A stretch of 32,000 nucleotides of DNA from Promethearchaeia archaeon (GTDB lineage: Archaea > Asgardarchaeota > Lokiarchaeia > Sigyniarchaeales > SOKP01): positions 4,409-36,408 of the forward strand of contig JAWOFX010000142.1 of assembly GCA_046497275.1 (NCBI GenBank), written 5' to 3'. This document shows positions 8,976 through 29,364 of this stretch, piece after piece. The notes under the pieces were generated by a model. It was not told the origin of the DNA. It saw only the letters and a list, made by a program, of their open reading frames with translations, and did no database searches. Every line of letters begins with the position of its first letter. The first letter of the stretch is position 1. The position numbers were made by a program, and so were the translations under genes.

Positions 8976-8992
8976 TATTTAAAAAGAAAAAA
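8976..8992 (-). promoter_or_regulatory. T-rich BRE/TATA motif variant
   Basis: TTTTTTC-TTTTTAAATA; C at 8986, 30 nt from ATG 8956. Confidence 0.65.
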
Positions 8993-9024
8993 GTAAGAGA
9001 AGAATCATAAAAAAACTCTTCACC

Positions 9025-9038
9025 TTTTTCTTTATATA
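9025..9038 (+). promoter_or_regulatory. T-rich BRE/TATA motif
   Basis: TTTTTCTTTATATA; C at 9030, 32 nt before ATG 9062. Confidence 0.6.
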
Positions 9039-9061
9039 TCTAAAAATTACAAAATAGTGCT

Positions 9062-9133
9062 ATGATTTCAAAACAAACTTATATATATAAAAATCAAGTT
9101 CTTACTAACGTTGTCTTTATTTCATTTTTATAG
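9062..9133 (+). CDS. Candidate 23-aa peptide MISKQTYIYKNQVLTNVVFISFL
   Basis: ATG at leaderless spacing from its own motif copy; no other support. Confidence 0.3.
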   Translation: MISKQTYIYKNQVLTNVVFISFL

Positions 9134-9146
9134 TTAAATTTATAAA

Positions 9147-9161
9147 TTTTTTCTTTATATA
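9147..9161 (+). promoter_or_regulatory. T-rich BRE/TATA motif (perfect copy)
   Basis: TTTTTTCTTTATATA upstream of 9230. Confidence 0.7.
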
Positions 9162-9229
9162 ATTCGAATCTCTTACTTATGATATCAAGATTCCTCTTGT
9201 GTAATGAGGGAATGGAGAAGTTTTGAGAA

Positions 9230-9526
9230 ATGAAGTGTGAATATTGCAAGAAAATTTTTCCCAGATCGAGCAAAAGGAGAGTGCGACATAGAAATACGCA
9301 AAGTTCTAATGGATCACTCAATTTTTGCTCGAAGAAATGCTATGAACAATGGCTTCAAGAGATCAAACACACCAATCTCCATTATTACGTAGTATGGAAA
9401 GTAATTGCTTTTTTTGGAAATTTTAAGTTTCGCAAACAGCTCATCCAAAGCGAAGGTATCATACCCGATCTTGGGCTCCCTAAAGATAATTCTCACTTTG
9501 CGCTTAACCTACAGGATGAATTTTAA
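9230..9526 (+). CDS. TRASH/treble-clef zinc-finger protein; possibly frameshifted, with the C-terminus continuing to 9639
   Basis: CEYC...FCSKKC; a protein-like -1 frame continuation ILNSLYDDPIFWANERYKKNMWKNINEGEFIIVYLNQGE spans 9520-9639. Confidence 0.6.
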   Translation: MKCEYCKKIFPRSSKRRVRHRNTQSSNGSLNFCSKKCYEQWLQEIKHTNLHYYVVWKVIAFFGNFKFRKQLIQSEGIIPDLGLPKDNSHFALNLQDEF

Positions 9527-9673
9527 ATAGTCTCTATGATGATCCCATATTTTGGGCGAATGAGAGATATAAGAAGAATATGTGGAAAAATATCAACGAG
9601 GGAGAATTCATCATTGTGTACCTTAATCAAGGAGAATAATTCATAAGGTAAAAATAAAAGAAGAATAAAATTA

Positions 9674-10327
9674 TTAAGAAAAATTGAACAAATTGAACAG
9701 CACTTGACCCAATAAATCCCGAAAGGTCTCAGCAACATTTTGTCCAGTGAGAGCAATCACGGGATACACAACGAGCGTTCCATCAGCATATTCTTCCTCT
9801 TTTGGAAGTCCTAATTGCTTCTTAAACTCATCAATATTTATCTTAGTCTGAATATCGCGCTTATTGAGTTGGATTATGTAGGGTATGCGTCGAGGGCTTG
9901 CAAAACTCAGCAACTCTCGGAAACTCCTTTTATTCTGCTCTAAAAGTTCTGGCTGAGAATCAGCAACAAACATGATCCCATCGGCACCTTCTAGTACATA
10001 CTCTCTTGTAGAGAGAAAGCGCTCTTGCCCTGTGCAAGTAACTACATGCACGATGATTATATACTCTTGCGTATTAATGGTAGCTTCAAAGGAAAGAAAC
10101 ATAGAATCCTGCCATAGAGTTCTACCGTCTTTAGTTTCAATAGAATAACCTTTAGTGACTCTGTGACTGTCAAATTTTTCTTTAAGACGAAGGAAGTTGG
10201 TGGTTTTGCCCGATTCCCCAGGGCCCCAATAGACGATCTTTAATTGGATCATATTGCCAAGAATCACCCCCCCTGTATTAGTATGGATACTATCATACTC
10301 CGATTCTTCGATTTCATTTCTGAGCAT
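9674..10327 (-). CDS. MglA-like small GTPase (Ras superfamily); alternative in-frame start at 10252
   Basis: LKIVYWGPGESGKTTN (G1), DGRTLW (switch I Arg), TCTGQERF (TxxG as in MglA), QLNKRD (G4). Confidence 0.9.
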   Translation of the reverse strand: MLRNEIEESEYDSIHTNTGGVILGNMIQLKIVYWGPGESGKTTNFLRLKEKFDSHRVTKGYSIETKDGRTLWQDSMFLSFEATINTQEYIIIVHVVTCTGQERFLSTREYVLEGADGIMFVADSQPELLEQNKRSFRELLSFASPRRIPYIIQLNKRDIQTKINIDEFKKQLGLPKEEEYADGTLVVYPVIALTGQNVAETFRDLLGQVLFNLFNFS

Positions 10328-10345
10328 TGGTATGTATTCACCCCC

Positions 10346-10894
10346 TCAATCTAAAGAAATTATTTTATTACCGAATATTTCACTTTTTAGTATCTTAATG
10401 TGTTCTTTCAGCTCTTTTTCGTTCATCTTTAAAGTACTTTTAATCGAACCTGAGTTTTCGATTTCCTTTTTAATTTTCATTGCGAAGCGTTGCATTTGTA
10501 AGACTGCTACGCCGATATTCACTTCATTATCCGATAGAAGGATGATGAGAACCTCTCGCTTTTCTTGTTGATTAAGCTCTACGTTGGTAATTGACTTAAC
10601 AAACAATCGTAGATTATTATAGATAATAGAAGCACGATCCAAATAATCAGCATCGAAAAAATCTTGTCCTTGTCGCGCAACACCATAAAGCGCCGCACCA
10701 ATGGAAGAGAGGTCCCAATAATTCAGATTTCTATCAAATCGCGAATCGACTGCGATAATTTTAGCATCTTGATCAACCGCGATGAGGCCATATACGTACC
10801 CCTTTCGAGTAAGCGTGCCATAGCTATTTCGAATCTCGTCTAAAATAGTACTAATACTGTTCTTATACAAAACTTTTGGTATGGTAATGGTCAT
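10346..10894 (-). CDS. Roadblock/LC7 (MglB-like) protein; start revised to ATG 10894
   Basis: YGLIAVDQDAKIIA...LSSIGAALYGVA roadblock pattern; adjacent to the MglA-like gene. The track extension to 10990 spans the promoter motif. Confidence 0.8.
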   Translation of the reverse strand: MTITIPKVLYKNSISTILDEIRNSYGTLTRKGYVYGLIAVDQDAKIIAVDSRFDRNLNYWDLSSIGAALYGVARQGQDFFDADYLDRASIIYNNLRLFVKSITNVELNQQEKREVLIILLSDNEVNIGVAVLQMQRFAMKIKKEIENSGSIKSTLKMNEKELKEHIKILKSEIFGNKIISLD

Positions 10895-10945
10895 ATATGT
10901 TATTATTCCATTTTTTAATTGATTAGAAGAAAAATAGAATAAAAC

Positions 10946-10960
10946 TATATAAAGAAAAAA
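10946..10960 (-). promoter_or_regulatory. T-rich BRE/TATA motif (perfect copy)
   Basis: TTTTTTCTTTATATA upstream of the roadblock-GTPase pair. Confidence 0.7.
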
Positions 10961-10986
10961 CATATTCAAGAAACAGTAAATTTTCC

Positions 10987-11922
10987 TCAAAACATTTTTA
11001 AGATTGATTTTTTAGTAAAATGAAGTTCTTTTCTCTTATTATAATCATTCTTTTCGATAAAAATACTCTTTAATTTAATAAGCATTCCATTTTCAATGAT
11101 GCGGAGAATCTCGATTGCCTGCATTCCCCATACCAATACATTGATAGCTCCAGTCTCATCGCTTATCATAAATTTCAATAAAAAGGATTTGTCTCCATCT
11201 TCAGAATCAAATTCTTTCAACTCATCTATCTTTACTATGCCTGAGATTTCTTTTACAAATCCATCCTTCTGATACAGATCTCGTATTTTTAATTCTTCCT
11301 GAGCCTCTCTTGAAGAAAACTCATTTTTTCTGGCATTAGATACCTCAATTTTTTGCAATTCCACTTTTATTTTTTTAGGAATATTATCAGGATTTAATTG
11401 TACCTTTCCTTGTTTTGAGAGATGCACTTCTAACCGATCTTTCAATCCTTTCTTACAATAGCAATTTATAACTCTAATAATTGTTCCGATCTTGAAAAAT
11501 TCAGTCTGCATAATCTTGGTATGATCATCCCAAAGCACGATTTTGGTAGTTCCTGAGGTATCTGATATCAAAAACGAACCAACATTACCTGAAGTACCGT
11601 CTTTTCGCATGAATTCATTTATGGGAAAAATACGTTTAATCTTTCCCAACAGAACAATATTTGAAAGATTTTCACGTAGATCCGATATGAGGATTATAAA
11701 TTCATTATAATCAATTTCTTGATTTGCTTCTTCGTAGAGTTCAGGATCGATTTGAGCTGACCGAATCTCGATCCCATTTTCTTTTGCGATGAGGAAAAGA
11801 GCGCCTTGAGGAGTTATAAATCCCTTAAACTCAAGTTCTTTGCGTTTTAGTTCCTCTTTTATCTCTTGTTCTGATAGTCCTGCTTCGGTCAGTTTTTGGT
11901 ATACATCTTGGGCATCACTCAT
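10987..11922 (-). CDS. RPA/SSB-like protein: N-terminal helical domain plus two OB folds
   Basis: FITPQGALFLIAKENGI N-domain; EFMRKDGTSGNVGSFLISDTSGTTKIVLW and KFMISDETGAINVLVW OB folds. Confidence 0.85.
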   Translation of the reverse strand: MSDAQDVYQKLTEAGLSEQEIKEELKRKELEFKGFITPQGALFLIAKENGIEIRSAQIDPELYEEANQEIDYNEFIILISDLRENLSNIVLLGKIKRIFPINEFMRKDGTSGNVGSFLISDTSGTTKIVLWDDHTKIMQTEFFKIGTIIRVINCYCKKGLKDRLEVHLSKQGKVQLNPDNIPKKIKVELQKIEVSNARKNEFSSREAQEELKIRDLYQKDGFVKEISGIVKIDELKEFDSEDGDKSFLLKFMISDETGAINVLVWGMQAIEILRIIENGMLIKLKSIFIEKNDYNKRKELHFTKKSILKMF

Positions 11923-12523
11923 TTTTTTTTAATACACCTTTTTCAATCATTATATTTTTAGTACGATAAAAGGCATAGGCAGAACAATCCATAAGCACTC
12001 GGATATTTTGCATTAACAAATTTTTTGTAGATAAAGGATCGTTCAAATCAGTGAGATAGATAACTATCGCAAGTTGCGTGGATATTCGTGGCCAAAAACT
12101 CGCAATTTGGAAAAATTGCTGAAGAATTTTCAGGTTAGTTTTTGCTCGGGGATAATCGAATACTGGAGCCAATTTATAGACTTTATGTAAATAGATTCTT
12201 ACTTTGGAATAAATACGATTCTGTTTATATCTCCACTGGATATGCGATCTTTTCCAAAATTTTCTAAAGTAATAAAACTGAGCAAAAAATTTTTCTATTA
12301 TGTCCCTAACCAGAAACTCTTGAATATTGGATTCTTCAGAGATTTGACGATAAGTATCATCAGAAAGCATATCTAGCAGAACCGTCTCATCTCCGTCTTT
12401 AGTAATTGGATGACCTCGAAAAAGCGTCTTTAATACTTTCTGCCTAATCTTTCCGAAATATAAAGAGTATTTTAACTCATGGGCAGTTTTTTCCTTAATG
12501 GTTATACTAAATACATTGGTCAT
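11915..12523 (-). CDS. Hypothetical protein with a possible single degenerate TFIIB/cyclin repeat at the C-terminus
   Basis: WPRISTQLAIVIYLT...LMQNIRVLMDCSAYAFYRTK resembles the TFIIB pattern GRSPxSxAAAxIYxA...TQxEIxxxxxVxxxTIR; stop overlaps the RPA start. Confidence 0.6.
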   Translation of the reverse strand: MTNVFSITIKEKTAHELKYSLYFGKIRQKVLKTLFRGHPITKDGDETVLLDMLSDDTYRQISEESNIQEFLVRDIIEKFFAQFYYFRKFWKRSHIQWRYKQNRIYSKVRIYLHKVYKLAPVFDYPRAKTNLKILQQFFQIASFWPRISTQLAIVIYLTDLNDPLSTKNLLMQNIRVLMDCSAYAFYRTKNIMIEKGVLKKNE

Positions 12524-12582
12524 GACTTGAACGCAAAAACTTTTTCATTCCTATTATTTTTGGATTTTTAACATATTGAGAA

Positions 12583-12597
12583 TATTTAAATAAAAAA
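12583..12597 (-). promoter_or_regulatory. T-rich BRE/TATA motif variant
   Basis: TTTTTTATTTAAATA upstream of 12523. Confidence 0.55.
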
Positions 12598-12659
12598 TAG
12601 AATGAAAATTTTAATGGAATGATTTTGAATGTAGGAGATTCATTTAAGAGAAATTTTTT

Positions 12660-13757
12660 TCAAAATATCATATCCAATGTCTTTTGAACGGTGCTAGGAC
12701 GATTCAAATCATACTGAAAAAATCGTAAGCATTCGTAAAAGTTCTCATTAAGTTTTTTTGAATGCTTTTCTACTCGTTCTGGGTTTAAATGATGATCCTT
12801 GCATAATAACTTAAAAATTCTCATTTTATCAGGTGGATTCCAACATAAATAATCAAATGAATCTAATACTTCAGGTAAAAGGAAAATTTTCCGAACTTCT
12901 GAAATAAGATCTCGGTCTAACTTTGAAAAGTCAAATTCATTGTGCTTTTTCGATTTTATTTTCTCGATAGTTTGATATTTTTTAATTAATTTGAGTGCTG
13001 TTTTAGGCCCGATTCCTTTAATACCTTGGAAATAATCAGTCTCAAGCATAAATGCGAGATCAACTAGTTGAAAGCGATCAATTCCTAACAATTCTAAATT
13101 ATGTTGTATATCTATTACCAATGGAACTAAACGAGTATATGTCCATTTATTTTGCACTTTTCTCCTCAGAGATTTTGATAAGTTTTGAATTAGAAATGGG
13201 CACCCAAACAGCAATGAATCAAAATCCTGCGAATTAGAAAAGTTAGCGATACCTTTTTTGACTAAGTGGGCACATTGCGATTCTGCTGAGGCGGGCGATT
13301 CGACTACGGGAACCCCAATCGCATGAAGAAGCTCTTTCGATTCTTTCATGATATTCGGCCATAAGTATTCTTTTGAAAGAGCGATAGTCCTTGCTAATTC
13401 TCTATTTCCGCTATTTATAGCATTTTTATATCGCTTTTGGGTGAACAAAAAATCATTAAGTTGATTTTTAGTAATTTTTCGCTTTAGTGGAGAAACTCTG
13501 CCATCAAAACAAAAAATTGGAAGGATGTTTTTGCTGTAATAAAATTTGATCCTGTAGAGAATTCCGTATAAATGAGAAATGACTCGTTGCGTACGATCAA
13601 GAATTAAATTAGTTTCTGTATTTAATGTTGGATTTTTATGGCTGAAGTTGAGCAATCCCATGATTATGTTCGGTGCATCAACAGAAATTATTTTTCCCTT
13701 TAATTCTTGGAAAGTAATTTTTCTTCGCTGAATAATAGGATCTAATTTGATTCCCAT
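12660..13757 (-). CDS. fen: Divergent flap endonuclease-1 (FEN1) paralog
   Basis: MGIKL, VDA, FDG, SQDFDSLLFG, TDY-GIKGIGPKTA (H3TH), PIP-like QKTLDMIF; several conserved residues are substituted. Confidence 0.9.
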   Translation of the reverse strand: MGIKLDPIIQRRKITFQELKGKIISVDAPNIIMGLLNFSHKNPTLNTETNLILDRTQRVISHLYGILYRIKFYYSKNILPIFCFDGRVSPLKRKITKNQLNDFLFTQKRYKNAINSGNRELARTIALSKEYLWPNIMKESKELLHAIGVPVVESPASAESQCAHLVKKGIANFSNSQDFDSLLFGCPFLIQNLSKSLRRKVQNKWTYTRLVPLVIDIQHNLELLGIDRFQLVDLAFMLETDYFQGIKGIGPKTALKLIKKYQTIEKIKSKKHNEFDFSKLDRDLISEVRKIFLLPEVLDSFDYLCWNPPDKMRIFKLLCKDHHLNPERVEKHSKKLNENFYECLRFFQYDLNRPSTVQKTLDMIF

Positions 13758-13777
13758 AGATTTTTTATTAAATATAG

Positions 13778-13793
13778 AAATAAAAAGAAAAAA
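13778..13793 (-). promoter_or_regulatory. T-rich BRE/TATA motif variant
   Basis: TTTTTTCTTTTTATTT; C at 13787, 30 nt from ATG 13757. Confidence 0.6.
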
Positions 13794-13968
13794 TAGAAAT
13801 ATAAGAAATATATTTTATTTATAAAATGCCAATTGGCGTTAATTTCAACAATTAAAGCATCTATCTAACTAAATTAGAGTTAATTCATTAAAATCATTAT
13901 TTAAGGGGATTTTTTCATAGATGCTTAAATTCGATATTAATCGTATTAAATTTTATCCAAAAAAAAAA

Positions 13969-13982
13969 TTTTTCTTTAAATA
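13969..13982 (+). promoter_or_regulatory. T-rich BRE/TATA motif
   Basis: TTTTTCTTTAAATA upstream of 14039. Confidence 0.65.
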
Positions 13983-14038
13983 AAGTCAAAATGTTGTATC
14001 TTTATATTAATAAAATATTCTATAATGAGGGAACATTA

Positions 14039-14401
14039 ATGGGAGAAGATATAGTGTTTTATGATGAACCTGGCAGGAGTAAAAAATATGTAAAAATCAT
14101 ATTTATTGGGATCTTAGCATTTATTGCAATCTATTTTCCACTTTTCGGAAATAATCTGCGGTATCAGATCGGAGGGATGCTTGATACACTCTTTAATTTT
14201 ATTGGGATTATCTGCTTGTTCTTAGGGGGAATAAATATTGCCATCGGATTTTTAGGACTAGTTGCAAAAAAATTCTATTTGGGAAATGTGGTCATAGGGG
14301 CACTCTTACTGTGGATAGGATGTTGGCTTACAGGGATTGTGATAAATTTATTCGGAGTAATTTTTGGCGGCTCCGAAGTTTCTAATCCTGGATATCATTA
14401 A
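14039..14401 (+). CDS. Small integral membrane protein (120 aa, about 3 TM helices); start revised to ATG 14039
   Basis: GAGGGA 6 nt before the ATG; Gly-rich hydrophobic helices. The track ATG at 13991 is too close to the promoter motif. Confidence 0.75.
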   Translation: MGEDIVFYDEPGRSKKYVKIIFIGILAFIAIYFPLFGNNLRYQIGGMLDTLFNFIGIICLFLGGINIAIGFLGLVAKKFYLGNVVIGALLLWIGCWLTGIVINLFGVIFGGSEVSNPGYH

Positions 14402-14480: not shown

Positions 14481-14705
14481 TTAAACACCTATTCGAAAAT
14501 ATCTCATCCCTGTTTGGAGTCCACAAACTGCAATTAAGAGTATAGAAATGCCTAACACAAAGTACATACTACTCCTTTTATAACGTGGAAGGGTCATCAT
14601 TCCGAGTACTCCGATGATAAGCCCTAGCACCCCCATGATCGAGCCGAAAGCGATCAAAAACTCTATTGCTTCTCCAATCATATCAAAATAGTTATTATAA
14701 ATCAT
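14481..14705 (-). CDS. Small two-helix membrane protein, possibly VirB2/TrbC/CedA1-type pilin-like
   Basis: 74 aa, two hydrophobic segments separated by a basic loop (PRYKRS). Confidence 0.65.
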   Translation of the reverse strand: MIYNNYFDMIGEAIEFLIAFGSIMGVLGLIIGVLGMMTLPRYKRSSMYFVLGISILLIAVCGLQTGMRYFRIGV

Positions 14706-14729
14706 AATGTACTAATATTCTGTTAAATC

Positions 14730-14744
14730 TATATAAAAAAAAAA
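14730..14744 (-). promoter_or_regulatory. T-rich BRE/TATA motif variant
   Basis: TTTTTTTTTTATATA ending 25 nt from ATG 14705. Confidence 0.55.
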
Positions 14745-14780: not shown

Positions 14781-14795
14781 TTTTTTCTTTAAATA
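14781..14795 (+). promoter_or_regulatory. T-rich BRE/TATA motif (perfect copy)
   Basis: TTTTTTCTTTAAATA upstream of 14841. Confidence 0.7.
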
Positions 14796-14840: not shown

Positions 14841-15179
14841 ATGCGACAAATTGAAGAAATAGGGATCTGTCCTAATTGCGACTGCTCGTTAATGATTTAT
14901 AAGACTTCAAACTATAAGCGGTTTGTTAAGTGCGAAATTTGTGGCCATTCCTACCCTCTTCCCAAACGAGGGCATATTGATAATTCAGCACTTATATGTC
15001 CCTTGCGAGGGTATCCTATTTTAATTGTTCAAAAACGAGACAGTAAAGCATATTTCTGGACAGATAGACCATGTTTTAGCTGCGTCCATATGGGCACATG
15101 CGAGCCTGTCAAGCAATTAGAAGAAGAATTTACTGAATTGGGAGTGTATGGATATGATCAAGCAGGGCAAAACACATAA
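14841..15179 (+). CDS. Stand-alone topoisomerase IA C4 zinc-ribbon-like protein
   Basis: GICPNCDCSL...KRFVKCEICGHSYPLP...ICPLRGYPIL...CFSC resembles the archaeal TopA C-terminal tail; start may be TTG 14829. Confidence 0.75.
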   Translation: MRQIEEIGICPNCDCSLMIYKTSNYKRFVKCEICGHSYPLPKRGHIDNSALICPLRGYPILIVQKRDSKAYFWTDRPCFSCVHMGTCEPVKQLEEEFTELGVYGYDQAGQNT

Positions 15180-17489: not shown

Positions 17490-17498
17490 TGTGTTTTA

Positions 17499-17505
17499 CA
17501 CCTCC
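17499..17505 (-). promoter_or_regulatory. Shine-Dalgarno GGAGGTG
   Basis: Strong SD followed by TAAAACACA then ATA. Confidence 0.7.
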
Positions 17506-17542: not shown

Positions 17543-17557
17543 TATATAAAGAAAAAA
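17543..17557 (-). promoter_or_regulatory. T-rich BRE/TATA motif (perfect copy)
   Basis: TTTTTTCTTTATATA upstream of radA. Confidence 0.7.
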
Positions 17558-18063: not shown

Positions 18064-18077
18064 TATTTAAAGAAAAA
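18064..18077 (-). promoter_or_regulatory. T-rich BRE/TATA motif
   Basis: TTTTTCTTTAAATA; C at 18072, 30 nt from ATG 18042. Confidence 0.7.
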
Positions 18078-18106
18078 GATCTTTACTTCATTAGATTAAA
18101 TCGTTA

Positions 18107-19185: not shown

Positions 19186-19187
19186 AC

Positions 19188-19946: not shown

Positions 19947-19961
19947 TATATAAAGAAAAAA
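19947..19961 (-). promoter_or_regulatory. T-rich BRE/TATA motif (perfect copy)
   Basis: TTTTTTCTTTATATA; C at 19955, 30 nt from ATG 19925. Confidence 0.75.
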
Positions 19962-20393
19962 TAATAGTATAAATGATGGATATAGAAAATGTATGAGTTA
20001 TGAATAGATTAAGATTTGTTAATCTTATTAAATAAATAATTATAACATTTACCAGTGCTACAAATTTTTGAAAATTATAAGGAAAACATTTACCTCGAGT
20101 TAGATCGCTCTAAATTTTTATGAAAAGAATCCTTTTCTCATTTTCAAGAGGGGTAGTCTAGATTAAGTGATCTGCAAGTTTTTATTTGAGAATTCTTTAT
20201 ATTTTTATCTGTAAACAAAATTAAGAACCATTTATATTATATATAAAAAATGTTCAACTGTTCTATAAATCTGATTATAATTTTCTAAAATTTATTCAAT
20301 AACAGTAATATTTAAAAAGACTACTCCCACTCTCTTCTATCTTAAGTTAATTTGAAAACATGATCAAAAAAATAGAAAAAGTGTTCAAAAAGT

Positions 20394-21750: not shown

Positions 21751-21765
21751 TTTTTTCTTTAAATA
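21751..21765 (+). promoter_or_regulatory. T-rich BRE/TATA motif (perfect copy)
   Basis: TTTTTTCTTTAAATA upstream of 21816. Confidence 0.7.
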
Positions 21766-21815: not shown

Positions 21816-24800
21816 ATGACAAAACCAAAATTTTCTAGAAAACCGCTATTAATAATAACAGTTTTAGTATGTTGCTTTTTAATATCTTCTTTAAACTTCA
21901 AACCAAAAAGAGAACAGATAAATGGAGAATTCAGAGAAAATATTCACCCTTCTGGAGATATGAACAATTATGATTTTATTTCTACAGTGATGGATGACTT
22001 AACCAATATATATGGAGAATATGGATATTTTCCTACATATTATGAACCTTCTATTCAAAGCACATATTTTGCACTTCAAAGTTATTTATCATTAGGCAGA
22101 ATAAGTGATCTCAATGAAACAGAGATTATATCCTTTCTAATAGATCATTATGATACAGAGCAAGGATATTTTATTGATGACTATGCGATTCGGTATTTGG
22201 ATACTGATTTTGAGGCATTTTATCTTCCTTTAAACACTTTACTGGAAGTAAACTGCTATGCGCTTCTCTCTTTAAAAATCCTTAACCGATTAGATTTGAT
22301 CAACAATCAAAGTTTTATTGATTTTATTTGGAGTTGTTTTAATTCTGATGAAGGCGCATTTATAGGACAACCATATGATGTAGATCTTCATCCTAAATTC
22401 AAAATTCCTACATTAGATAATACCTATTATGCAGTGAAAATACTTGATCTCCTACTCGATACTTGGGATGAATATTATCCTCAAAGATCTCAATTAATTA
22501 CGTTTATTGAAGATTGCCAAACATTTATCACAAAAGAAGCGCAATATGGAGGATTTAAGAATGATCTGGTAAGCGGGTTTAGTTCATTGAGAATAACAGA
22601 TCCAAATATGCTCTCCTCGTTTTATGCATTGGAGACTCTTAATACTTTCAATGCGTTGGAAGCCATTAATATTGACGCTTTCAATCAATTCTTGAAAGAT
22701 CTATACAATATAGAAAATTTCTTTTTTGAATTATCATGGTTTCCTGACCTTCCTACTCATGGCAGACCATTTGCAACCAGTATTGGATTATCTCTCTCAT
22801 TGCTCACTGGTTATAACGAAATCAATGAAATGGGAATAGTTAATTATCTAAAAAGTATTCGCAACAATATTGGAGTATGGAAGAGCTCAATAAATGATCT
22901 CCAATTTGAATTGATTGATACATTCCAAGTACTTCGCTCTCTATATGACTCGAGGCATATTAATGATTTCACAAATGGCGAGAAGGATGCGATTGCAGAT
23001 GGACTTGAACATTTTAAGAGTTACCAGAGTTATTGCAATACACCCACCGATTATATGAGTATATCTGCTCTTTCATCCATAGCAAAATCATTCAAAATTT
23101 TTAATAGAGAAACAGATTTAGAGATCCAAGAATTATTTGTGTATTTGCGTGATGCATATATTAGTGATCCTGAAAATGAACCGCGAAGTTTTTATGGATA
23201 TACAAATATGGATGCTAAATATTTATTTTTCAGAATCTATCCTATTGAATATTACAATTTGGGAACTTATTCTTCTCTGGAATATATAGATTACTTATTT
23301 AATCATAAATTCGTTTATCAGGCCCTTACAGCTTTAAAAGATTTATACAAACTAGATGATTTTGACACTTTCTATGCTCTTAATGAATTGCTTGATCAAA
23401 CAGTTTTAGCACAAATTATTAATCCCAATTCAGATAAATTTGGAGCATTTCTTCCTAATTCTCTTTTACTTAATTTTGATCAAGATCTTCAAGACAAAAC
23501 GGTATTTTTAGAGCAATCATTTTATGCGATTCGTACTATGGAATTACTTAGAGATTATTTGGAATTAGGATCCTTAGAGGAATTATTATTGGATTCTGAG
23601 GCTTTAAAAGTATATATATTTAATACTTTTGAGGCACCGGGATCTTATTGCTATTCCATGCCCCGTGCGACCAGTGACGTGAATATCATTCTTAAAAACA
23701 CTTATTATGCTAGTTATATAATGAAATCTCTTGACTCATTTACACAAGATACGCAAAAAATCAAGAATTATATTATGGATCATCTTGACTACAATGATAT
23801 TGAAAACATTTATTATTCTTATCTCCTCGATCAATTGTTAGAGTTAGATATAGAATTTCCTATTGAATCAGTCCAGGCTTTAATCCAGGAACTTTATTGC
23901 GAGGATTTGAATTGTTTTTATCTAACTACAGAAAAAAATAAGATTAATCAACAGATACTATATTGGATCTGTGATATGGCTAAAAATGATAAATACCGTT
24001 ATAACATTAATTTCGATGATGTTATTCTCTTGGATTCATATTCTATGATCACTGTAGAAATACAAAATCTTATCTTAAATAGCATTGGTCAATATGGTTC
24101 TCTCAAGTTCGAAAGTGACCAATTGGGGGAATATGCCTTTACTGAATTTGGTGAAGGAGTGTTCCGATGTAATGTTTTTGTGCCATTTGATGTTTCTAAT
24201 TATCCTACAATTGAAGGAAATATCTCGCGCTATGAATTTTCTACGAAACAAGAGGTGATTCCTATTAGTTTTAACACAACTTATGAACTCTTCTCAGAGA
24301 TTAACTTCTTAGAAAATGCTAATACAATCAATATTGAAATTAACTGTTCATTGAATATCGCCTCAGGAAGTAGAAATTTACCAGATGGAGAATCATTTAT
24401 GCATATTTATCATGAAGGAGAATATATTGCCACAGATAGTCTCTCGTATCAACAAAACGGTGATTATACAAAGTATTTTTTAGAGTATGAATATACTCAG
24501 TTCGGAAACTATTCTTTTGAATTATACGTGAATGATGGCCTTAACGAAAGCGATCATTTCATTGGAAAAATTATGACACAACATAGCTACCAACTGATCT
24601 CTGAAGTGTCAATTTCCCGCATTAACACTACCATTAATTTTATTATCAACGCGTCTATGATGGTGGAAGGGAGTGAAATCCAACCATTCTCATACGGTTC
24701 AGCATTTTTAAAAATATATAGAGAAGGTACTTATATTCAACAAAAAAATTTTATTGGAGAAGACCGCGACACTTATACTCATTTTGAGACTACATATATG

Positions 24801-25058
24801 ATGATCCAAACAGGAAATTATTCATTTGAACTTTATCTTGATGATGGATTGAATCCAAGCCAGAATCTGATCTACGAATATTTTACCTCCTATGGAAATG
24901 AACCACAAGATCCAACCGATCCACAACCCAATGGAACAAATGAACCTCAAATTCCACTAATTCTTTTCTATCCTATCATACTCCTCCCCTTATTTGGATC
25001 CTCTGGAGCAATTGCATTTACATTTCTGAAGAAAAAGCAACTGAAAACTCTAAAATAA
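21816..25058 (+). CDS. Large membrane-anchored surface protein with prenyltransferase/squalene-cyclase-like alpha-toroid repeats and two Ig-like repeats
   Basis: Signal peptide; repeats STYFAL, TYYAV, SFYAL, SFYAI, TYYAS; duplicated GNYSFELYxxDGLN; PQD linker; C-terminal TM plus basic tail. Confidence 0.75.
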   Translation: MTKPKFSRKPLLIITVLVCCFLISSLNFKPKREQINGEFRENIHPSGDMNNYDFISTVMDDLTNIYGEYGYFPTYYEPSIQSTYFALQSYLSLGRISDLNETEIISFLIDHYDTEQGYFIDDYAIRYLDTDFEAFYLPLNTLLEVNCYALLSLKILNRLDLINNQSFIDFIWSCFNSDEGAFIGQPYDVDLHPKFKIPTLDNTYYAVKILDLLLDTWDEYYPQRSQLITFIEDCQTFITKEAQYGGFKNDLVSGFSSLRITDPNMLSSFYALETLNTFNALEAINIDAFNQFLKDLYNIENFFFELSWFPDLPTHGRPFATSIGLSLSLLTGYNEINEMGIVNYLKSIRNNIGVWKSSINDLQFELIDTFQVLRSLYDSRHINDFTNGEKDAIADGLEHFKSYQSYCNTPTDYMSISALSSIAKSFKIFNRETDLEIQELFVYLRDAYISDPENEPRSFYGYTNMDAKYLFFRIYPIEYYNLGTYSSLEYIDYLFNHKFVYQALTALKDLYKLDDFDTFYALNELLDQTVLAQIINPNSDKFGAFLPNSLLLNFDQDLQDKTVFLEQSFYAIRTMELLRDYLELGSLEELLLDSEALKVYIFNTFEAPGSYCYSMPRATSDVNIILKNTYYASYIMKSLDSFTQDTQKIKNYIMDHLDYNDIENIYYSYLLDQLLELDIEFPIESVQALIQELYCEDLNCFYLTTEKNKINQQILYWICDMAKNDKYRYNINFDDVILLDSYSMITVEIQNLILNSIGQYGSLKFESDQLGEYAFTEFGEGVFRCNVFVPFDVSNYPTIEGNISRYEFSTKQEVIPISFNTTYELFSEINFLENANTINIEINCSLNIASGSRNLPDGESFMHIYHEGEYIATDSLSYQQNGDYTKYFLEYEYTQFGNYSFELYVNDGLNESDHFIGKIMTQHSYQLISEVSISRINTTINFIINASMMVEGSEIQPFSYGSAFLKIYREGTYIQQKNFIGEDRDTYTHFETTYMMIQTGNYSFELYLDDGLNPSQNLIYEYFTSYGNEPQDPTDPQPNGTNEPQIPLILFYPIILLPLFGSSGAIAFTFLKKKQLKTLK

Positions 25059-25084
25059 ATTTTTTTCACCTTTTCTTTTTCTGA

Positions 25085-25099
25085 TTTTTTCTTTTTATG
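25085..25099 (+). promoter_or_regulatory. T-rich BRE/TATA motif variant
   Basis: TTTTTTCTTTTTATG; implies the start is ATG 25130 rather than 25097. Confidence 0.45.
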
Positions 25100-25129
25100 C
25101 AACTTCATTCTAATCTAATAGAGAATATT

Positions 25130-25786: not shown

Positions 25787-25805
25787 GGATGAGCGAATGT
25801 ATTGA

Positions 25806-25820
25806 TTTTTTCTTTTAATA
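25806..25820 (+). promoter_or_regulatory. T-rich BRE/TATA motif variant
   Basis: TTTTTTCTTTTAATA upstream of hef. Confidence 0.6.
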
Positions 25821-25865
25821 TATATGTTTTATAGTTTCACTACTCTTAATAGGATATGATTGTTA

Positions 25866-28022
25866 ATGAGTCATTCCCAAGAAAATATGTTGCCATTGCA
25901 AATAAAAAGTACTTATCTTCACGAGGATAAGATAGAACCTCGGAAGTATCAAGTCGATATTGCCTTACAATGCATAGCAAAAAACTCGCTGGTGGTCATT
26001 CCTACAGGGCTTGGAAAAACAATCATCGCCATCTTAGTTGCTGCTAAAACTTTAGAGATATCTCCACCAAGTAGTAAAGTAATTATAATGGCTCCCACTC
26101 GACCATTAATTAACCAACATTACGAAACATTCCTTCAATTTTTTACAATACCAGAAGATCAATATGCTATTTTGACGGGAAAAATTTCTCCTGACGATCG
26201 TCCTAAAGAGTTTCGATCCCATAAAATGCTATTTTTTACTCCGCAAACGTTACGGAATGATTTAGTGTCTGGCAATTATTTGTTAGATAATACAAGTTTA
26301 CTAATCTTTGATGAGGCACATCACGCTTCTGGGGATTATCCCTATACGATGATTGCAGATCTGTATGAAACGCAAAACCCAGATGGGACCATCTTAGGAT
26401 TAACTGCCTCTCCGGGATCTTCTCAACAAGCGATAAATGATCTCTGTCTAAATCTCCATATTCCTTCCAACAATATCCATATTCGTAAACGCAAAGATGT
26501 CGATGTCAAAGGATACATAAAACCGATGGATATTTATAAGATCGGAGTAAATTTGACCTCACTTATGGAAGATGTAAGAAAAGTATTATATATGATCTTA
26601 GAAGAGCGACTTCGGTATCTTTCCCAATTAGGATTTTTAAAGGTCCACACAGACAAATTATATGAAAAAATCATTCGAAAAGATCTTCTAGAATTGAATC
26701 GAAAGTTACTGGCAATCATTCAAGGGGATGGAGAAAAGACGGGAGCCTATAAATCCTTATCTATCAACGCTCAAGGACTCATTTTGTATCATATGTTGGA
26801 ATTAGTGGAACAGCAAGGCTTAGATGTATTGCTCAAGTATTTGGAAAAACTCCAGAAAGATGCTCATAAGAAAAATAGTTCTAAAGCAAATCGAATTTTA
26901 GCAACAGATCCCCGAATTCGAAGAATTGATTTAGAACTGCGAAAACACTATGAATTTGAGCCTAACAGCTTATTGCATCCGAAACTGAAAGTATTGAAAA
27001 GTGTGCTTTCTGATGAATTTAGTAAAAACCCAGAATCAAAAATATTAGTATTTGTAAAGCTTCGAGCTTCCGTAAAAAATATCGTAAAAAAATTAGAATC
27101 TTCTCAAACTATACGACCTGTACGATTTGTAGGACAAGCAACAAAATCTGACGATGATAAGGGACTTTCCCAAAAAAAGCAAATCGAGATTTTGGATAAA
27201 TTCAAGCAAGGAATCTTTAATGTATTAGTGAGTACCAATGTGGGAGAGGAAGGCTTGGATATTGCCGAATGCGATTTAGTGATCTTTTATGATGTGGTCG
27301 CCTCTGAAATTCGTCTTATTCAAAGAAAGGGACGAACAGCGCGTCATCGTGAAGGAAGAGTGATCATTCTCTACTGTCGCAATACGAATGATGAAGTCTA
27401 TTTACAGATTGCGATGAATAAGTTAAAACGTATGCAGAGAAATCTGCAAAATCCGCAAACGAAGAAAAAGAGTGAATTTTCTCGTTTTACCGTTAAAAAA
27501 GGATCTGAATTAGAAAAGGAAGTGAAAGGAAGAACCCAAAAGAAGCAATTTAATTTGGTTGATTTTGTCAATACACAAGAACAAGAAAATCATACAAAGG
27601 TATTGGAACAGGAAAAAGAGGGAGATATCATTTTAAATTCTAATTTGGATATGAAATATGGGTTGCGAAAAAATCTTAACGCGGCAAGTATCGAATTTTT
27701 AGTAAAACAGTCTGAATATTCCCTCGTGGTATTTGAGAAGATTCTCATCCAGATTATAGATCCTCGTGAGAGCAATAAATCTGAACTTTTAAAGTTCTAT
27801 GAAGAATGGAAAACAAAATTTGAGTTAGTGGTTCTGGTGATTGATTTTATAGAGTTTAAAGAAACATTCCTTGATGAAAATCGACTTTTAAAGCAAAAAT
27901 TTGTAGATTTTGGAAAGAACAAAAACATCCAAATAGTTACCATTGATACACTTGAGGAATTATTTTTCCTTGTAAAAAATGTCTTCGACTATAATACTCA
28001 AAGATCAGAGAGGGAGATGTGA
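25866..28022 (+). CDS. hef: Hef/FANCM/Mph1-family SF2 helicase with degenerate ERCC4 nuclease-like C-terminal domain
   Basis: EPRKYQ, PTGLGKT, DEAHHA, TAS, STNVGEEGLDI, IQRKGRTAR; start ATG 25866 or TTG 25860. Confidence 0.9.
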   Translation: MSHSQENMLPLQIKSTYLHEDKIEPRKYQVDIALQCIAKNSLVVIPTGLGKTIIAILVAAKTLEISPPSSKVIIMAPTRPLINQHYETFLQFFTIPEDQYAILTGKISPDDRPKEFRSHKMLFFTPQTLRNDLVSGNYLLDNTSLLIFDEAHHASGDYPYTMIADLYETQNPDGTILGLTASPGSSQQAINDLCLNLHIPSNNIHIRKRKDVDVKGYIKPMDIYKIGVNLTSLMEDVRKVLYMILEERLRYLSQLGFLKVHTDKLYEKIIRKDLLELNRKLLAIIQGDGEKTGAYKSLSINAQGLILYHMLELVEQQGLDVLLKYLEKLQKDAHKKNSSKANRILATDPRIRRIDLELRKHYEFEPNSLLHPKLKVLKSVLSDEFSKNPESKILVFVKLRASVKNIVKKLESSQTIRPVRFVGQATKSDDDKGLSQKKQIEILDKFKQGIFNVLVSTNVGEEGLDIAECDLVIFYDVVASEIRLIQRKGRTARHREGRVIILYCRNTNDEVYLQIAMNKLKRMQRNLQNPQTKKKSEFSRFTVKKGSELEKEVKGRTQKKQFNLVDFVNTQEQENHTKVLEQEKEGDIILNSNLDMKYGLRKNLNAASIEFLVKQSEYSLVVFEKILIQIIDPRESNKSELLKFYEEWKTKFELVVLVIDFIEFKETFLDENRLLKQKFVDFGKNKNIQIVTIDTLEELFFLVKNVFDYNTQRSEREM

Positions 28023-28025
28023 AGA

Positions 28026-28529
28026 ATGGAAGATGATGAAACTGGGATTACAAAGGATGAAAAACCGTATTTAATTTTTCGTTGTAGCAAGTGTGAGCAG
28101 TATATGTATGTCAAACCCACTCAAAAACAGAAAAAATGTCTCAGGTGTGGTAGGACGCACACTGTTGCTAAATTAGATGTCGTAGATGAAGTAAAAGGGA
28201 TGACTACAGCGGTGAATCGAGTAAAAGAATTACAAAATACATTAGGGGGAGAGCCAAACCTAAGAGGATCAGGTGAATTCTCTGTTGCTTTGTCTAATGC
28301 TGGTGTAAACAAGATCAAAAATATTATGAATGAATCTGAACTAGAGATCCAATTCTATGATCTTTTACACAATTTAGCACAACAATATACAAAGTTTCCG
28401 TATTATATGATTGAATTAATGGCCCAAGAAAGTCAGTTTGACTTAAATGAAGTACAATTATTCTTAAGAAAATTCATAAAAGAAGGCGTTTTACGGCAAC
28501 TAGATCACAATTATTATACTCTGTTATAA
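28026..28529 (+). CDS. Zinc-ribbon (DUF1922-like) protein with probable C-terminal winged helix
   Basis: FRCSKCEQYMYV...KKCLRCG; C-terminal VQLFLRKFIKEGVLRQLDHNYY; GAGGGAG upstream; 3 nt after the hef stop. Confidence 0.7.
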   Translation: MEDDETGITKDEKPYLIFRCSKCEQYMYVKPTQKQKKCLRCGRTHTVAKLDVVDEVKGMTTAVNRVKELQNTLGGEPNLRGSGEFSVALSNAGVNKIKNIMNESELEIQFYDLLHNLAQQYTKFPYYMIELMAQESQFDLNEVQLFLRKFIKEGVLRQLDHNYYTLL

Positions 28530-28540
28530 ATTAATACCGA

Positions 28541-28555
28541 TTTTTTCTTTTTATA
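28541..28555 (+). promoter_or_regulatory. T-rich BRE/TATA motif variant
   Basis: TTTTTTCTTTTTATA upstream of the small ORF at 28603. Confidence 0.5.
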
Positions 28556-28602
28556 ATTCTTGAGTATTTTTCTATAAAATATCATAAAGAGGAACATACA
28601 TT

Positions 28603-28752
28603 ATGAATTCCCTACTCATTTCAGAAAAGGAGAAAACGAAGCATGAAAAAGATACATTAGAAGAGGTGTGCGAAGTTTTAGAAGCCGTAAAAACAATCGG
28701 GCGCATGCTCGTTGTATATTATACTAATGTAAAAAAAGAAAGAGATAATTAA
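28603..28752 (+). CDS. Small protein (49 aa), below the ORF-track size cutoff
   Basis: MNSLLISEKEKTKHEKDTLEEVCEVLEAVKTIGRMLVVYYTNVKKERDN; GAGGA 9 nt upstream; stop interlocks (TTAA) with the stop of the convergent gene. Confidence 0.55.
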   Translation: MNSLLISEKEKTKHEKDTLEEVCEVLEAVKTIGRMLVVYYTNVKKERDN

Positions 28753-28976
28753 GAAGAGAGCTCTTTTTTGAGAATCTCTTTTATTTCTTTTTTCGTGAGC
28801 TCCTTCTCGTTAGAATCATCTAAAAACTCTAGATCAGAGATATATTTCAATACATGAAAATTATCAAACCGAATAGCAATTCGTTTAATGAAGGATTGAA
28901 ACTCCAAATCCTCTTCTGTTTGAGTCTCTCTTTTTTTAATTTCTGTACTTCTATTCTTTTGTGATTCAGTACTCAT
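28749..28976 (-). CDS. Small hypothetical protein (75 aa)
   Basis: ORF with a motif copy 34 nt upstream. Confidence 0.65.
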   Translation of the reverse strand: MSTESQKNRSTEIKKRETQTEEDLEFQSFIKRIAIRFDNFHVLKYISDLEFLDDSNEKELTKKEIKEILKKELSS

Positions 28977-29000
28977 AATGAATAACTCAGGCGATGAATC

Positions 29001-29014
29001 TATTTAAAAGAAAA
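29001..29014 (-). promoter_or_regulatory. T-rich BRE/TATA motif variant
   Basis: TTTTCTTTTAAATA; C at 29010. Confidence 0.6.
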
Positions 29015-29043
29015 TTCTTCAAATCTTTGAAATTACATTTAAT

Positions 29044-29319
29044 TTACTCTTGAGTGATACTATCCAGATATAATTTCATGAAATACCGCTGGCTTTTACA
29101 ATAATCTCGCCGTTGTGCGTCTGTAATGGAATGAGAATTCAATAGTATATTCAATTTTTTGAGGATTTCTAGATATTCTTGGGTAGATTTCTGCGGTTCT
29201 CGTTTAATTTCAACTTTTAACTTTTGGTTCCTTGTATTCGGATTTTGGGGATGGATCTGAGGGATAATAAATGATAATTTCCTCTCTTTTTCTTTTTCAG
29301 AATCAGAATCTAATTCCAT
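29044..29319 (-). CDS. Small hypothetical protein (91 aa)
   Basis: ORF with a motif copy 39 nt upstream. Confidence 0.65.
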   Translation of the reverse strand: MELDSDSEKEKERKLSFIIPQIHPQNPNTRNQKLKVEIKREPQKSTQEYLEILKKLNILLNSHSITDAQRRDYCKSQRYFMKLYLDSITQE

Positions 29320-29349
29320 CGCAGATCTACAAAATAATAAGAGTGAGAA

Positions 29350-29364
29350 AATATAAAGAAAAAA
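29350..29364 (-). promoter_or_regulatory. T-rich BRE/TATA motif
   Basis: TTTTTTCTTTATATT; C at 29358. Confidence 0.65.

Follow-up and report, generated by a model that had tools for sequence, protein, structure and literature searches.

A T-rich promoter element of an accessory island in Lokiarchaeia and a divergent TFB paralog as its candidate reader

We analyzed a 32,000-nt stretch of DNA (hereafter, the window) from a Promethearchaeia archaeon, which together with contigs C158 and C42 makes up the source genome's copy of an accessory island of ~36–40 kb that occurs in one GTDB family of Lokiarchaeia (Asgard archaea) and is syntenic across many genera. The island encodes paralogs of repair and recombination proteins (RadA, RadB-like, FEN1, RPA-like, Hef-like and Hel308-like), about ten membrane or surface proteins, a small GTPase, an E1-like enzyme and a divergent TFB, P0001. 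Of the 34 island genes, nineteen possess a site of their own for a 15-mer, TTTTTTCTTTAWATA, in which six T residues and a C (T6C) directly precede TTTAWATA (Table 1). For the Hel308-like helicase, a motif copy lies 128–465 nt upstream of the gene in relatives.

Table 1. Motif sites and associated genes, in window coordinates.
Feature	Coordinates	Strand	Associated genes and remarks
Variant site, T6C + TTTTTAAATA	8976..8992	-	399-aa gene 7757-8956; C-to-ATG 30 nt, leaderless geometry
Site CTTTTTCTTTATATA	9024..9038	+	19.6 bits; target uncertain because the sole ORF (23 aa) starts 23 nt downstream
Exact site	9147..9161	+	68 nt 5' of 98-aa Zn-ribbon gene 9230-9526
Exact site	10946..10960	-	operon: unk214 (10346-10963), Arf/Ras-like small GTPase (9674-10327)
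Site, C to A	12583..12597	-	operon: unk202 (11915-12523), RPA-like OB-fold gene (10987-11922)
Site	13779..13793	-	FEN1/XPG paralog 12660-13757; C-to-ATG 30 nt
Site	13968..13982	+	3-TM small membrane protein (13991/14039-14401)
Site	14730..14744	-	74-aa 2-TM protein 14481-14705; TATA-to-ATG 24 nt
Exact site	14781..14795	+	Zn-ribbon protein (14841-15179), 337-aa bitopic membrane protein (15148-16161)
Exact site	17543..17557	-	RadA/Rad51 paralog 16269-17408; real start probably a non-ATG codon near 17489, preceded by GGAGG
Site	18064..18078	-	122-aa Cys-rich protein 17674-18042; C-to-ATG 30 nt
Exact site	19947..19961	-	operon: 6-TM protein (19188-19925), unk123 (18823-19194), RadB-like ATPase (18107-18826); C-to-ATG 30 nt
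TFB paralog's own promoter	20310..20330	+	ATTTAAAAAG, then conserved ACTCCYWCC box; ~75 nt 5' of ATG
Divergent TFB paralog P0001	20394..21653	+	419 aa; recognition helix MSTIQSQVKR, residues 273-282
Exact site	21751..21765	+	1080-aa acidic surface protein with alpha/alpha-toroid domain (21816-25058)
Weaker site TTTTTTCTTTTTATG	25085..25099	+	unk229 (25097/25127-25786)
Site	25806..25820	+	Hef-like SF2 helicase (25866-28022), DUF1922 protein (28026-28529)
Site	28541..28555	+	19.6 bits; target uncertain because the sole ORF (49 aa) starts 47 nt downstream
Degenerate copy AATTTTC-TTTTAAATA	29001..29016	-	5' of 75-aa ORF 28749-28976
Site	29350..29364	-	91-aa gene 29044-29319
Hel308-like helicase, island gene	29374..31833	-	promoter at or past contig end

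All six exact copies listed in the first-pass annotation were recovered with their coordinates and strands, compared with none expected from dinucleotide shuffles. With near-copies included the window holds ~18, and at up to two mismatches there were 20 matches, compared with 3.4 expected and a shuffle maximum of 9. The near-copies lay within 1 nt of where they had been placed (the first at 8976/8978), except that the one claimed at 29001 is present just as a degenerate minus-strand copy shifted by 1 nt. All sites are intergenic and aimed at an ORF start 0–135 nt downstream, which bears out the orientation described earlier, and the spacing taken to indicate leaderless transcription also held, with exactly 30 nt between the motif C and the A of the ATG in the genes starting at 8956, 13757, 18042 and 19925. 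The motif had been called absent upstream of 6293, 6776, 6967 and 7228, and there were indeed no PWM matches of at least 11 bits between 6000 and 7900.

Genome-wide (3.85 Mb), the exact 15-mer occurs 14 times, and ten of these copies fall in the island, which makes up 36.4 kb or 0.94% of the genome (binomial p = 5 × 10−18). Intergenic PWM matches of at least 16 bits numbered 29 per 10 kb in the island versus 0.42 per 10 kb outside it, where about a dozen sites occupy promoter positions ahead of genes without orthologs in relatives. Genome G006 served as an independent replicate, with 17 PWM matches within its 40 kb island versus 3 in 60 kb of flanks. Where TTTAWA lies at leaderless distance elsewhere (n = 208), the upstream sequence is weakly A-rich (69 purine-rich, 12 pyrimidine-rich), and in tRNA upstream regions A-runs precede the TATA box. 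T6C is not the upstream pattern of ordinary TATA boxes or of tRNA promoters, and the motif is thus not a generic promoter, the outcome that the first-pass annotation had anticipated for a comparison with housekeeping promoters. The canonical BRE signal is weak in this AT-rich genome, so that calling T6C non-canonical draws a contrast with a soft consensus.

Among 104 sites in relatives, the unselected flanks show T (0.55) then A (0.72) at positions 36/37, 22 nt past the end of the TATA sequence, and this initiator signal places T6C at −36 to −30, the BRE position. At these sites T6 is invariant, its register to the TATA sequence is fixed, and 84% of them retain the C at −30. The 15-mer appears to be the core of a dedicated promoter class, with TTTAWATA as the predicted TATA box at −29 to −22 and T6C directly 5' of it. 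Transcription would begin 22 nt past the TATA box, and for four window genes the start would be the ATG itself.

As expected if orthologs in other Lokiarchaeia share the element, the 15-mer occupies orthologous promoters of at least 12 genomes spanning several genera, with only 30–70% identity among the encoded proteins, and 15 of 15 bases are conserved across genera next to intergenic DNA that is not alignable. The island itself was found in 30 of 40 family genomes and is missing in congeners; genomes with it hold 5–27 exact motif copies, versus 2–6 in those without. The regulon had been proposed for the whole locus, but this locus is an accessory, possibly relocatable island that reaches past the window onto the two further contigs, so that the regulon would essentially coincide with the island and is not dispersed. 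The adjacency best conserved across relatives runs from the TFB paralog through the motif to the toroid gene, and mini-modules reduced to these two genes keep the motif. Co-occurrence of motif and paralog, also predicted in the first-pass annotation, was evident in a density of 2.0 motifs per 10 kb within 1.5 kb of 29 paralog copies, compared with none around canonical TFB loci and 0.26 around the loci of housekeeping RadA/Hef. In G038, from a sister family, the paralog is 24% identical and has the helix TASTVYSHIKN, and the promoters of its cluster read T8-10-GC-TTTTATAAAC; this G-containing variant occurs three times in 4.3 Mb, each time within the cluster. The link from protein to motif comes from this association and from G038 as one co-varying outgroup, and since both the motif and the paralog belong to the island, they could occur together through shared descent of the island rather than through recognition.

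The gene at 20394 encodes a genuine TFB, albeit a divergent one, in which a C4 Zn ribbon and two cyclin repeats are followed by a C-terminal tail of ~100 aa. Aligned with the canonical TFBs of the genome (hhalign), it matched over residues 15–283 with 98.8% probability (E = 1 × 10−16), and the best core match of its predicted structure (Foldseek) was the P. woesei TFB (1d3u_B; TM 0.76, rmsd 3.0 Å); the B-reader region is poorly modelled (pLDDT <50 at residues 46–65). Some databases label family members 'Brf1/TFIIB'. P0001 does share with Brf1 and Brf2 a layout in which a Zn ribbon and two cyclin repeats are joined by a C-terminal extension, and Brf2 and Pol III TFIIIB chains appeared in the Foldseek search as well, but these matches are weaker than those to TFIIB/TFB (E 1e-3 to 1e-2 vs 1e-6), and homology between the tail and the Brf homology blocks was not detectable. 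Archaea have a single RNA polymerase, unlike the Brf context. The recognition helix aligns as MSTIQSQVKR in P0001 versus TEVTxRxRYK in canonical TFBs; the latter is invariant in five genomic TFBs, the former invariant or nearly so in 32 family members and secondary copies. In P0001 the second cyclin repeat has thus had its BRE-reading helix replaced: the two canonical arginines are gone and the helix is Ser/Gln-rich. The promoter of the paralog itself, conserved in six genomes, does not contain T6C. The source genome also encodes ~9 full canonical TFBs and one marginal TFB-like ORF.

We propose, with somewhat better than even confidence, that the island TFB paralog reads T6C as the dedicated initiation factor of the island promoters. 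A single TBP would bind the TATA box, and the island TFB, not a canonical TFB, would read the T6C duplex and recruit RNA polymerase. An alternative TFB had been suggested in the first-pass annotation; an island-specific motif, its conservation, the co-occurrence and a real TFB with a replaced helix speak for it, although the ~9 other full TFBs and other regulators leave room for a different reader. We infer that the paralog binds TBP and T6C and that the island is inducible, and likewise infer the island's role.

We consider it rather unlikely that T6C is instead the operator of a separate activator or repressor overlapping the BRE, with a canonical TFB initiating and the paralog acting, for example, as a general co-activator like TFB3 or as a decoy. 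Archaeal regulators often cover BRE and TATA box, canonical TFBs are available for initiation, and the island encodes several uncharacterised Zn-ribbon and basic proteins, any small one of which would be a candidate. The other candidate is an Orc1-2-like protein, as NTTTC inside T6C resembles the Orc1-2 element of Sulfolobales, the DDRE 5'-ANTTTC-3' (PMC12490963), but the defining A of the DDRE is misplaced, the A in the motif lying 8 nt before the TATA box. The element is also non-palindromic and fused to the TATA box at invariant spacing, as befits a core promoter element better than an operator; the mini-modules keep the motif but lack the Zn-ribbon genes; and the paralog's recognition helix is strongly conserved in a family-specific manner and changes with the motif in G038. 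That no dedicated protein reads the element seems to us very improbable. The T-tract would then act through DNA properties (archaeal histone exclusion, curvature or an oligo-T terminator/insulator) alongside a near-consensus TATA box, and the promoters would resemble one another through duplication and common descent inside the island. Oligo-T signals intrinsic termination in archaea, poly(dA:dT) is a poor substrate for histone wrapping, a co-directional gene precedes many sites, and the G038 variant retains mainly the long T-run. However, the widely kept C and invariant T6 in fixed TATA register argue against such a passive tract, preservation of the full 15-mer amid unalignable DNA points to sequence-specific selection, and the facing sites 8976/9024, 13779/13968 and 14730/14781 lie in divergent intergenic regions with no gene end to terminate.

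The same mechanism would serve a different biology if the island were an integrated mobile element (virus, plasmid or ICE-like) or its domesticated remnant, with motif and TFB as its own transcription system, comparable to the promoter/factor pairs of large viruses; we regard this as unlikely. The G006 island sits between orthologs of the G000 neighbours C41:981-2099 and C41:2341-2898 and is flanked by a 175-bp imperfect direct repeat (74% identity, E = 9 × 10−28) that overlaps the 5' end of the flanking gene, the island is patchily present among genomes, the RadA, FEN1, RPA and helicase genes that it carries are additional paralogs, and some genomes hold 2–6 copies of the TFB paralog. Yet no integrase, replication initiator, polymerase, capsid or terminase was found in the scanned ORFs (Pfam and PHROGs), and within-island gene order is broadly conserved across genera, as vertical inheritance with loss predicts. 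Variable island location is weak evidence because gene order in the adjacent chromosome is shuffled in any case, the AFOR flank occurring in three different contexts in congeners.

Reading the paralog as a dedicated initiation factor invites comparison with TFB2 of Sulfolobus acidocaldarius, a full-length paralog with a cyclin core that occupies and drives a defined gene set, namely its own gene and dispersed cell-division genes, from TATA boxes common with the housekeeping TFB and a BRE similar to that of TFB1, BRE-TATA spacing alone differing (bioRxiv 10.64898/2026.09.06.749720). P0001 is likewise a full-length cyclin-core TFB paralog tied to a gene programme, but the sequence at the BRE position itself differs, its own promoter falls outside the class and its predicted targets form one contiguous island. 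In the DNA-damage response of Sulfolobales, damage induces TFB3, a general activator dependent on Orc1-2, and recognition of the DDRE falls to an Orc1/Cdc6 protein rather than to a TFB (PMC12490963). That response resembles the island in joining a TFB paralog to repair or recombination and cell-surface functions (there, aggregation and DNA transfer) and in using at its promoters a short T-rich element that ends in TTTC; among the island genes we saw none of Orc1 type. TFB3 is generally described as lacking the cyclin core, whereas P0001 has both cyclin repeats and the HTH. Haloarchaea are said, in work by Turkarslan and co-workers from 2011, to have multiple TFB and TBP families, expanded general factors whose paralogs partition promoters. 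An expansion of general transcription factors is common to both cases. The haloarchaeal paralogs have canonical sequences and control dispersed regulons, whereas P0001 is divergent and its promoter class island-bound; we know of no description in haloarchaea of an island-restricted promoter with a BRE of inverted polarity.

Bacterial alternative sigma regulons, such as ComX with the competence cin-box, pair a dedicated initiation factor with a distinct core-promoter element. The likeness lies in a factor made from an ordinary promoter and an element common to DNA-transaction and envelope genes, and it is an analogy only, since protein families and promoter architecture are unrelated. Because the promoter of the TFB paralog is ordinary and different from those of the other island genes, whatever controls it would switch on the whole island in a sigma-factor-like cascade. 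The island is thus probably turned on as a whole, in the manner of a bacterial alternative-sigma regulon.

The first-pass annotation had described six exact copies of the 15-mer TTTTTTCTTTAWATA, in which a T-rich element (T6C) is fused upstream of a TATA box (TTTAWATA), and all six were recovered at the same coordinates and on the same strands, with none in shuffled sequences. Allowing up to two mismatches, the window contained 20 matches against 3.4 expected. The near-copies it had listed were likewise present, each within 1 nt of the position given, although the one at 29001 was found only in a degenerate, shifted form. Each site was intergenic and faced an ORF start, the distance from the C to the ATG was exactly 30 nt for the ATGs at 8956, 13757, 18042, and 19925, and nothing comparable was found upstream of 6293–7228, all as had been claimed. 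The motif is thus confirmed, at a frequency far beyond chance.

We analyzed the distribution of the motif across the whole G000 assembly (3.85 Mb, 188 contigs, 30% GC) by counting exact copies and by scanning with a position weight matrix (PWM) built from 17 window sites, using a cut-off of 16 bits. Only 14 exact copies were found in the genome, and 79 PWM matches scored at least 16 bits, 16 of them on C13, the contig that contains the window (C13:4409–36408). With the accessory gene set around the TFB paralog (hereafter, the island) taken as 36.4 kb, or 0.94% of the genome, 10 of the 14 exact copies fell inside it (p = 5e-18), and intergenic PWM matches reached a density of 29 per 10 kb, compared to 0.42 outside. 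These counts rule out the motif as the generic promoter of this genome and bear out the earlier view of a locus-specific signal. A motif site of their own was present for 19 of the 34 island genes; the remaining genes look operonic.

In the rest of the genome, TTTAWATA boxes located upstream of genes showed no preference for T6C. Anchoring on all TTTAWATA octamers to find the canonical BRE, the element upstream of the TATA box, gave a composition near background because most such octamers arise by chance at 30% GC. At leaderless distance from genes elsewhere (n = 208), the sequence before TTTAWA was weakly A-rich, with 69 purine-rich and 12 pyrimidine-rich cases, and tRNA genes carried A-runs before TATA-like boxes, an anecdotal view since aragorn detected only 13 tRNAs. 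PWM matches of 15–17 bits before metabolic genes and genes for Hsp20, topoisomerase, and Ogg were treated as probable chance, and two candidate targets outside the island, a zinc-finger protein on C71 and a 129-aa protein on C11, had no orthologs in five relatives. An island-specific promoter class is, in our judgment, almost certainly real.

At least 12 genomes, representing several genera of one GTDB family, share the gene order of the whole island, and the 15-mer is kept at the corresponding promoters even where the encoded proteins are only 30–70% identical. In the relative G006 (10 contigs), the island occupies ~84.3–124.2 kb of contig C11 and includes orthologs of genes at C158:22.7–29.8 kb and on C42 of G000, indicating that the other strong sites of G000, three exact copies on C158 and one on C42, belong to the same island, split by the assembly. 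By synteny with G006 and G016, the contig ends that are part of it comprise C158:22.6–29.9 kb and the end of C42, which encode a ThiF/E1-like enzyme, an 8-TM protein, and several ORFans. A 100-kb stretch of G006 contained 17 PWM matches in the island and 3 outside.

The motif and the TFB paralog (P0001, 419 aa, encoded at 20394–21653) are also linked across genomes. P0001 homologs are encoded by 30 of the 40 genomes sampled from this GTDB family and, at E ≤1e-25, by none of 160 genomes representing 26 further families in the phylum. All named database matches were from Lokiarchaeota/Promethearchaeota. Exact motifs in other genera were concentrated on the contigs that carry the paralog. Counting PWM matches up to 1.5 kb from each of 29 paralog copies gave 2.0 per 10 kb, compared to 0 at canonical TFB genes and 0.26 at housekeeping RadA/Hef loci, so the co-occurrence expected from the first-pass annotation was found. 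Small secondary modules, consisting only of the paralog and the gene for a toroid-domain protein, still have the motif.

Ordinary metabolic genes (AFOR and oxidoreductases) fill the leftmost 6.3 kb of the window, and the island encodes a set of recombination and repair proteins (see table), together with ~10 membrane or surface proteins. Where the TFB paralog is missing from a genome of the family, only distant copies of the repair genes are present, which indicates that the repair set of the window is accessory and paralogous. Among the island's uncharacterised proteins, NCBIfam gave only the RadB-like match, and a protein atlas search with the toroid protein gave no usable match. Two small convergent genes at 13991–14401 (+) and 14481–14705 (−), each with one motif copy and conserved in relatives, encode hydrophobic proteins with three and two TM segments, respectively. 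The RadA paralog has a conserved N-terminal HhH segment (ISDLSQIKGINSRHIKLL...; 17408–17500, −) that precedes the first ATG in the same frame; it comes after a TAA, and none of ATG, GTG, or TTG intervenes. GGAGG is located ~9 nt before an ATA codon. The same pattern occurs with ATT or ATA in G004 and G019, and an ordinary ATG is present in G016. As a C-terminal HHH_5 domain is also present, this protein has two HhH modules.

Features of the accessory island, the promoter of its TFB gene, and the sister-family cluster
Feature	Location	Strand	Source of assignment	Other copies in G000 (contig, identity)	Conservation
RadA/Rad51 protein	window		Pfam	C56, C46 (41%)	
FEN1/XPG nuclease	window		Pfam	C156 (32%)	
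RPA-like OB-fold protein	window		Pfam	C34 (32%)	
Hef-like SF2 helicase	window		Pfam	C156 (41%), C59 (37%)	
Hel308-like SF2 helicase	window		Pfam	C169 (31%)	
DUF1922 protein	window		Pfam		
Arf/Ras-like GTPase	window		Pfam		
1080-aa protein with alpha/alpha-toroid domain	window		Pfam		
RadB-like ATPase, 239 aa			NCBIfam		
TFB paralog promoter: ATTTAAAAAG, then ACTCCYWCC box	window 20310–20330	+			six genomes
Diverged cluster of sister-family genome G038	G038 C1:1.730–1.762 Mb				

One comparison may point to insertion. In G006, the ~40-kb island separates the orthologs of a gene pair that is contiguous in G000 (gap at C41:2099–2341) and is bracketed by an imperfect direct repeat of 175 bp (74% identity, E = 9e-28; contig C11 84170–84344 and 124023–124195) that overlaps the flanking gene at its 5′ end. 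The two loci would form an insertion and empty-site pair, although this is a single case against generally scrambled synteny. A mobile element would be compatible with the other mechanisms considered here, but searches of the G000 and G006 island ORFs with Pfam and PHROGs, in which many ORFs had no family, found no integrase or recombinase and no replication or structural hallmark genes, and local synteny is scrambled so generally that a variable position is weak evidence. With no integrase or viral hallmark gene found, and with synteny around the G000 junction scrambled in all congeners, we give mobility a low probability. A virus or provirus, lacking hallmark genes by the same two databases, is retained only as a low-confidence rival. 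At the left junction of the G000 island, a reciprocal search for an empty site met a different context around the AFOR flank in every congener and so carried no information. The AFOR gene flanking the island (2696–4876, −) has a different neighbourhood in each of three congeners, reflecting either frequent small-scale rearrangement or movement of the AFOR gene itself.

Promoter geometry was derived from 104 pooled sites in relatives, using only flanks that had played no part in site selection. An initiator-like T (0.55) followed by A (0.72) appeared at positions 36/37, 22 nt past the last TATA base. In addition, position 21 favoured A, and positions 26–29 were rich in A/T. This initiator signal places the TATA box at −29 to −22 and T6C at −36 to −30, which is the BRE position. 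The four leaderless genes of the window have their ATG exactly at motif position 37. The sites resemble archaeal core promoters in having a TATA box ~22–29 nt before the predicted start and a pyrimidine–purine initiator, but there is no purine-rich BRE directly before the TATA box: T6C consists of pyrimidines only, and the same positions in the ordinary promoters of G000 lean towards A.

P0001 has the N-terminal C4 zinc ribbon (C19, C22, C36, and C39, invariant in 32 homologs) and the two cyclin-fold repeats of the TFB/TFIIB family, but it falls short of the curated thresholds: PF08271 matched at E = 2e-4, under its cut-off, NF001658 reached 19 bits where 384 are required, and PF00382 gave no match. 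Its ribbon was aligned to canonical TFB ribbons by hhalign, which, against five canonical TFBs of G000, aligned residues 15–283, covering the ribbon and both cyclin repeats (98.8% probability, E = 1e-16). A profile of the 32 homologs matched the first cyclin repeat of TFIIB, and an AlphaFold model (core pLDDT ~88) superimposed on Pyrococcus woesei TFB (1d3u_B/1ais_B) with a TM score of 0.76 and an rmsd of 3.0–3.4 Å over 196 columns in Foldseek. The B-reader residues Y50, P53, Y54, T67, G70, E74, and R75 are conserved, yet the region is poorly modelled. The canonical recognition helix, which reads the BRE, is missing. In the hhalign alignment, TEVTxRxRYK, in which T, E, T, R, R, and K are invariant among the five canonical TFBs, is replaced by MSTIQSQVKR with the loss of both arginines, and M273, S274, T275, I276, Q279, and V280 are fully or almost fully conserved in the family; secondary paralog copies keep the helix as well. 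P0001 is a divergent TFB paralog and not a canonical TFB. A model of the G000 TBP with the P0001 cyclin core (residues 90–315) scored 0.08 against a mark of 0.32 and says nothing either way about binding. The ~100-aa tail (residues 320–419, window 21351–21653) has two predicted beta hairpins at residues 364–385 and a nearly invariant KGPP motif at its very end.

About nine full-length canonical TFBs (C34, C1, C136, C31, C47, C178, C51, C124, and C44) and a single TBP (C172:65.9–66.4 kb) are encoded in G000. A further, marginal TFB lies at C1:39.1–39.6 kb. For a non-halophile, about nine TFBs alongside one TBP represent a large expansion of the TFB family. The paralog gene has a different promoter from that of its neighbours: no T6C was found in its upstream region, ~440–470 nt long in most aligned genomes, in any of six genomes, and a TATA-like ATTTAAAAAG is followed directly by an ACTCCYWCC box. 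A T6C-free promoter fits a cascade, with the box as a candidate operator for the cascade's controller.

The closed 4.3-Mb genome of a sister family, G038, has a diverged version of the cluster (RadA 66%, Hel308 36%, FEN1 36%, GTPase 48%, and TFB-like protein 24% identity). T6C-TTTAWATA is absent from G038, and the cluster promoters instead read T8-10-GC-TTTTATAAAC at leaderless distance. The genome has three occurrences of this G-containing variant, none of them more than 15 kb from the cluster. The helix of the G038 paralog is TASTVYSHIKN. This joint change of helix and promoter may point to a recognition link, and it is only suggestive because it comes from one independent lineage.

We propose that the island's TFB paralog reads T6C, the best-supported mechanism and one we consider slightly more likely than not. 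A separate regulator acting on T6C would account for the same promoter class and seems to us rather unlikely, and effects of the T-tract that require no factor are more improbable still.

TFB paralogs that partition promoters are known, including TFB2 and TFB3 of Sulfolobus and the haloarchaeal TFBs, and the DNA code separating them has been hard to pin down. TFB3 has a Zn ribbon without a cyclin core. To our knowledge, almost nothing is known of transcription regulation in Asgard archaea, and our literature search found nothing on Asgard promoter classes, the P0001 family, or an Asgard Brf/TFB-like family. Sulfolobus TFB2 is a cyclin-core paralog that drives a cell-division regulon; its BRE is reported to be similar to that of TFB1 with different spacing (bioRxiv 10.64898/2026.09.06.749720), and the Sulfolobales damage response combines Orc1-2, acting on ANTTTC, with TFB3 and couples repair to aggregation and DNA transfer (PMC12490963). 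Unlike the TFB3/Orc1-2 system, P0001 has both cyclin repeats, and searches of the island revealed no Orc1-type gene; T6C contains TTTTC, but its A lies 8 nt before the TATA box and not at position 1 of the DDRE hexamer. Compared to both precedents, the element at the BRE position here is sequence-distinct and pyrimidine, the paralog is full-length with a rewritten helix, and the target set is a single accessory island. We group the case with TFB-paralog regulons.

This locus offers an unusually clean pair, a 15-nt promoter almost exclusive to one island and a TFB with a rewritten, conserved recognition helix. A sister lineage changes both halves. A direct test of whether an archaeal TFIIB homolog selects promoters in a sigma-like manner thus becomes feasible. 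The island itself is a large, uncharacterised accessory system with Rad51-family recombinases and surface proteins. A speculative reading, to which we give little credence, is that it forms a self-contained, relocatable unit with which Asgard archaea exchange and recombine DNA. The surface and membrane proteins would bring about contact between cells or the transfer of DNA, the island's private Rad51-type recombinases, RPA, FEN1, and helicases would act on that DNA, and the entire unit would be triggered by its own TFB through an inverted-polarity BRE. If true, archaea of the lineage closest to eukaryotes would possess a counterpart to competence or mating programmes.
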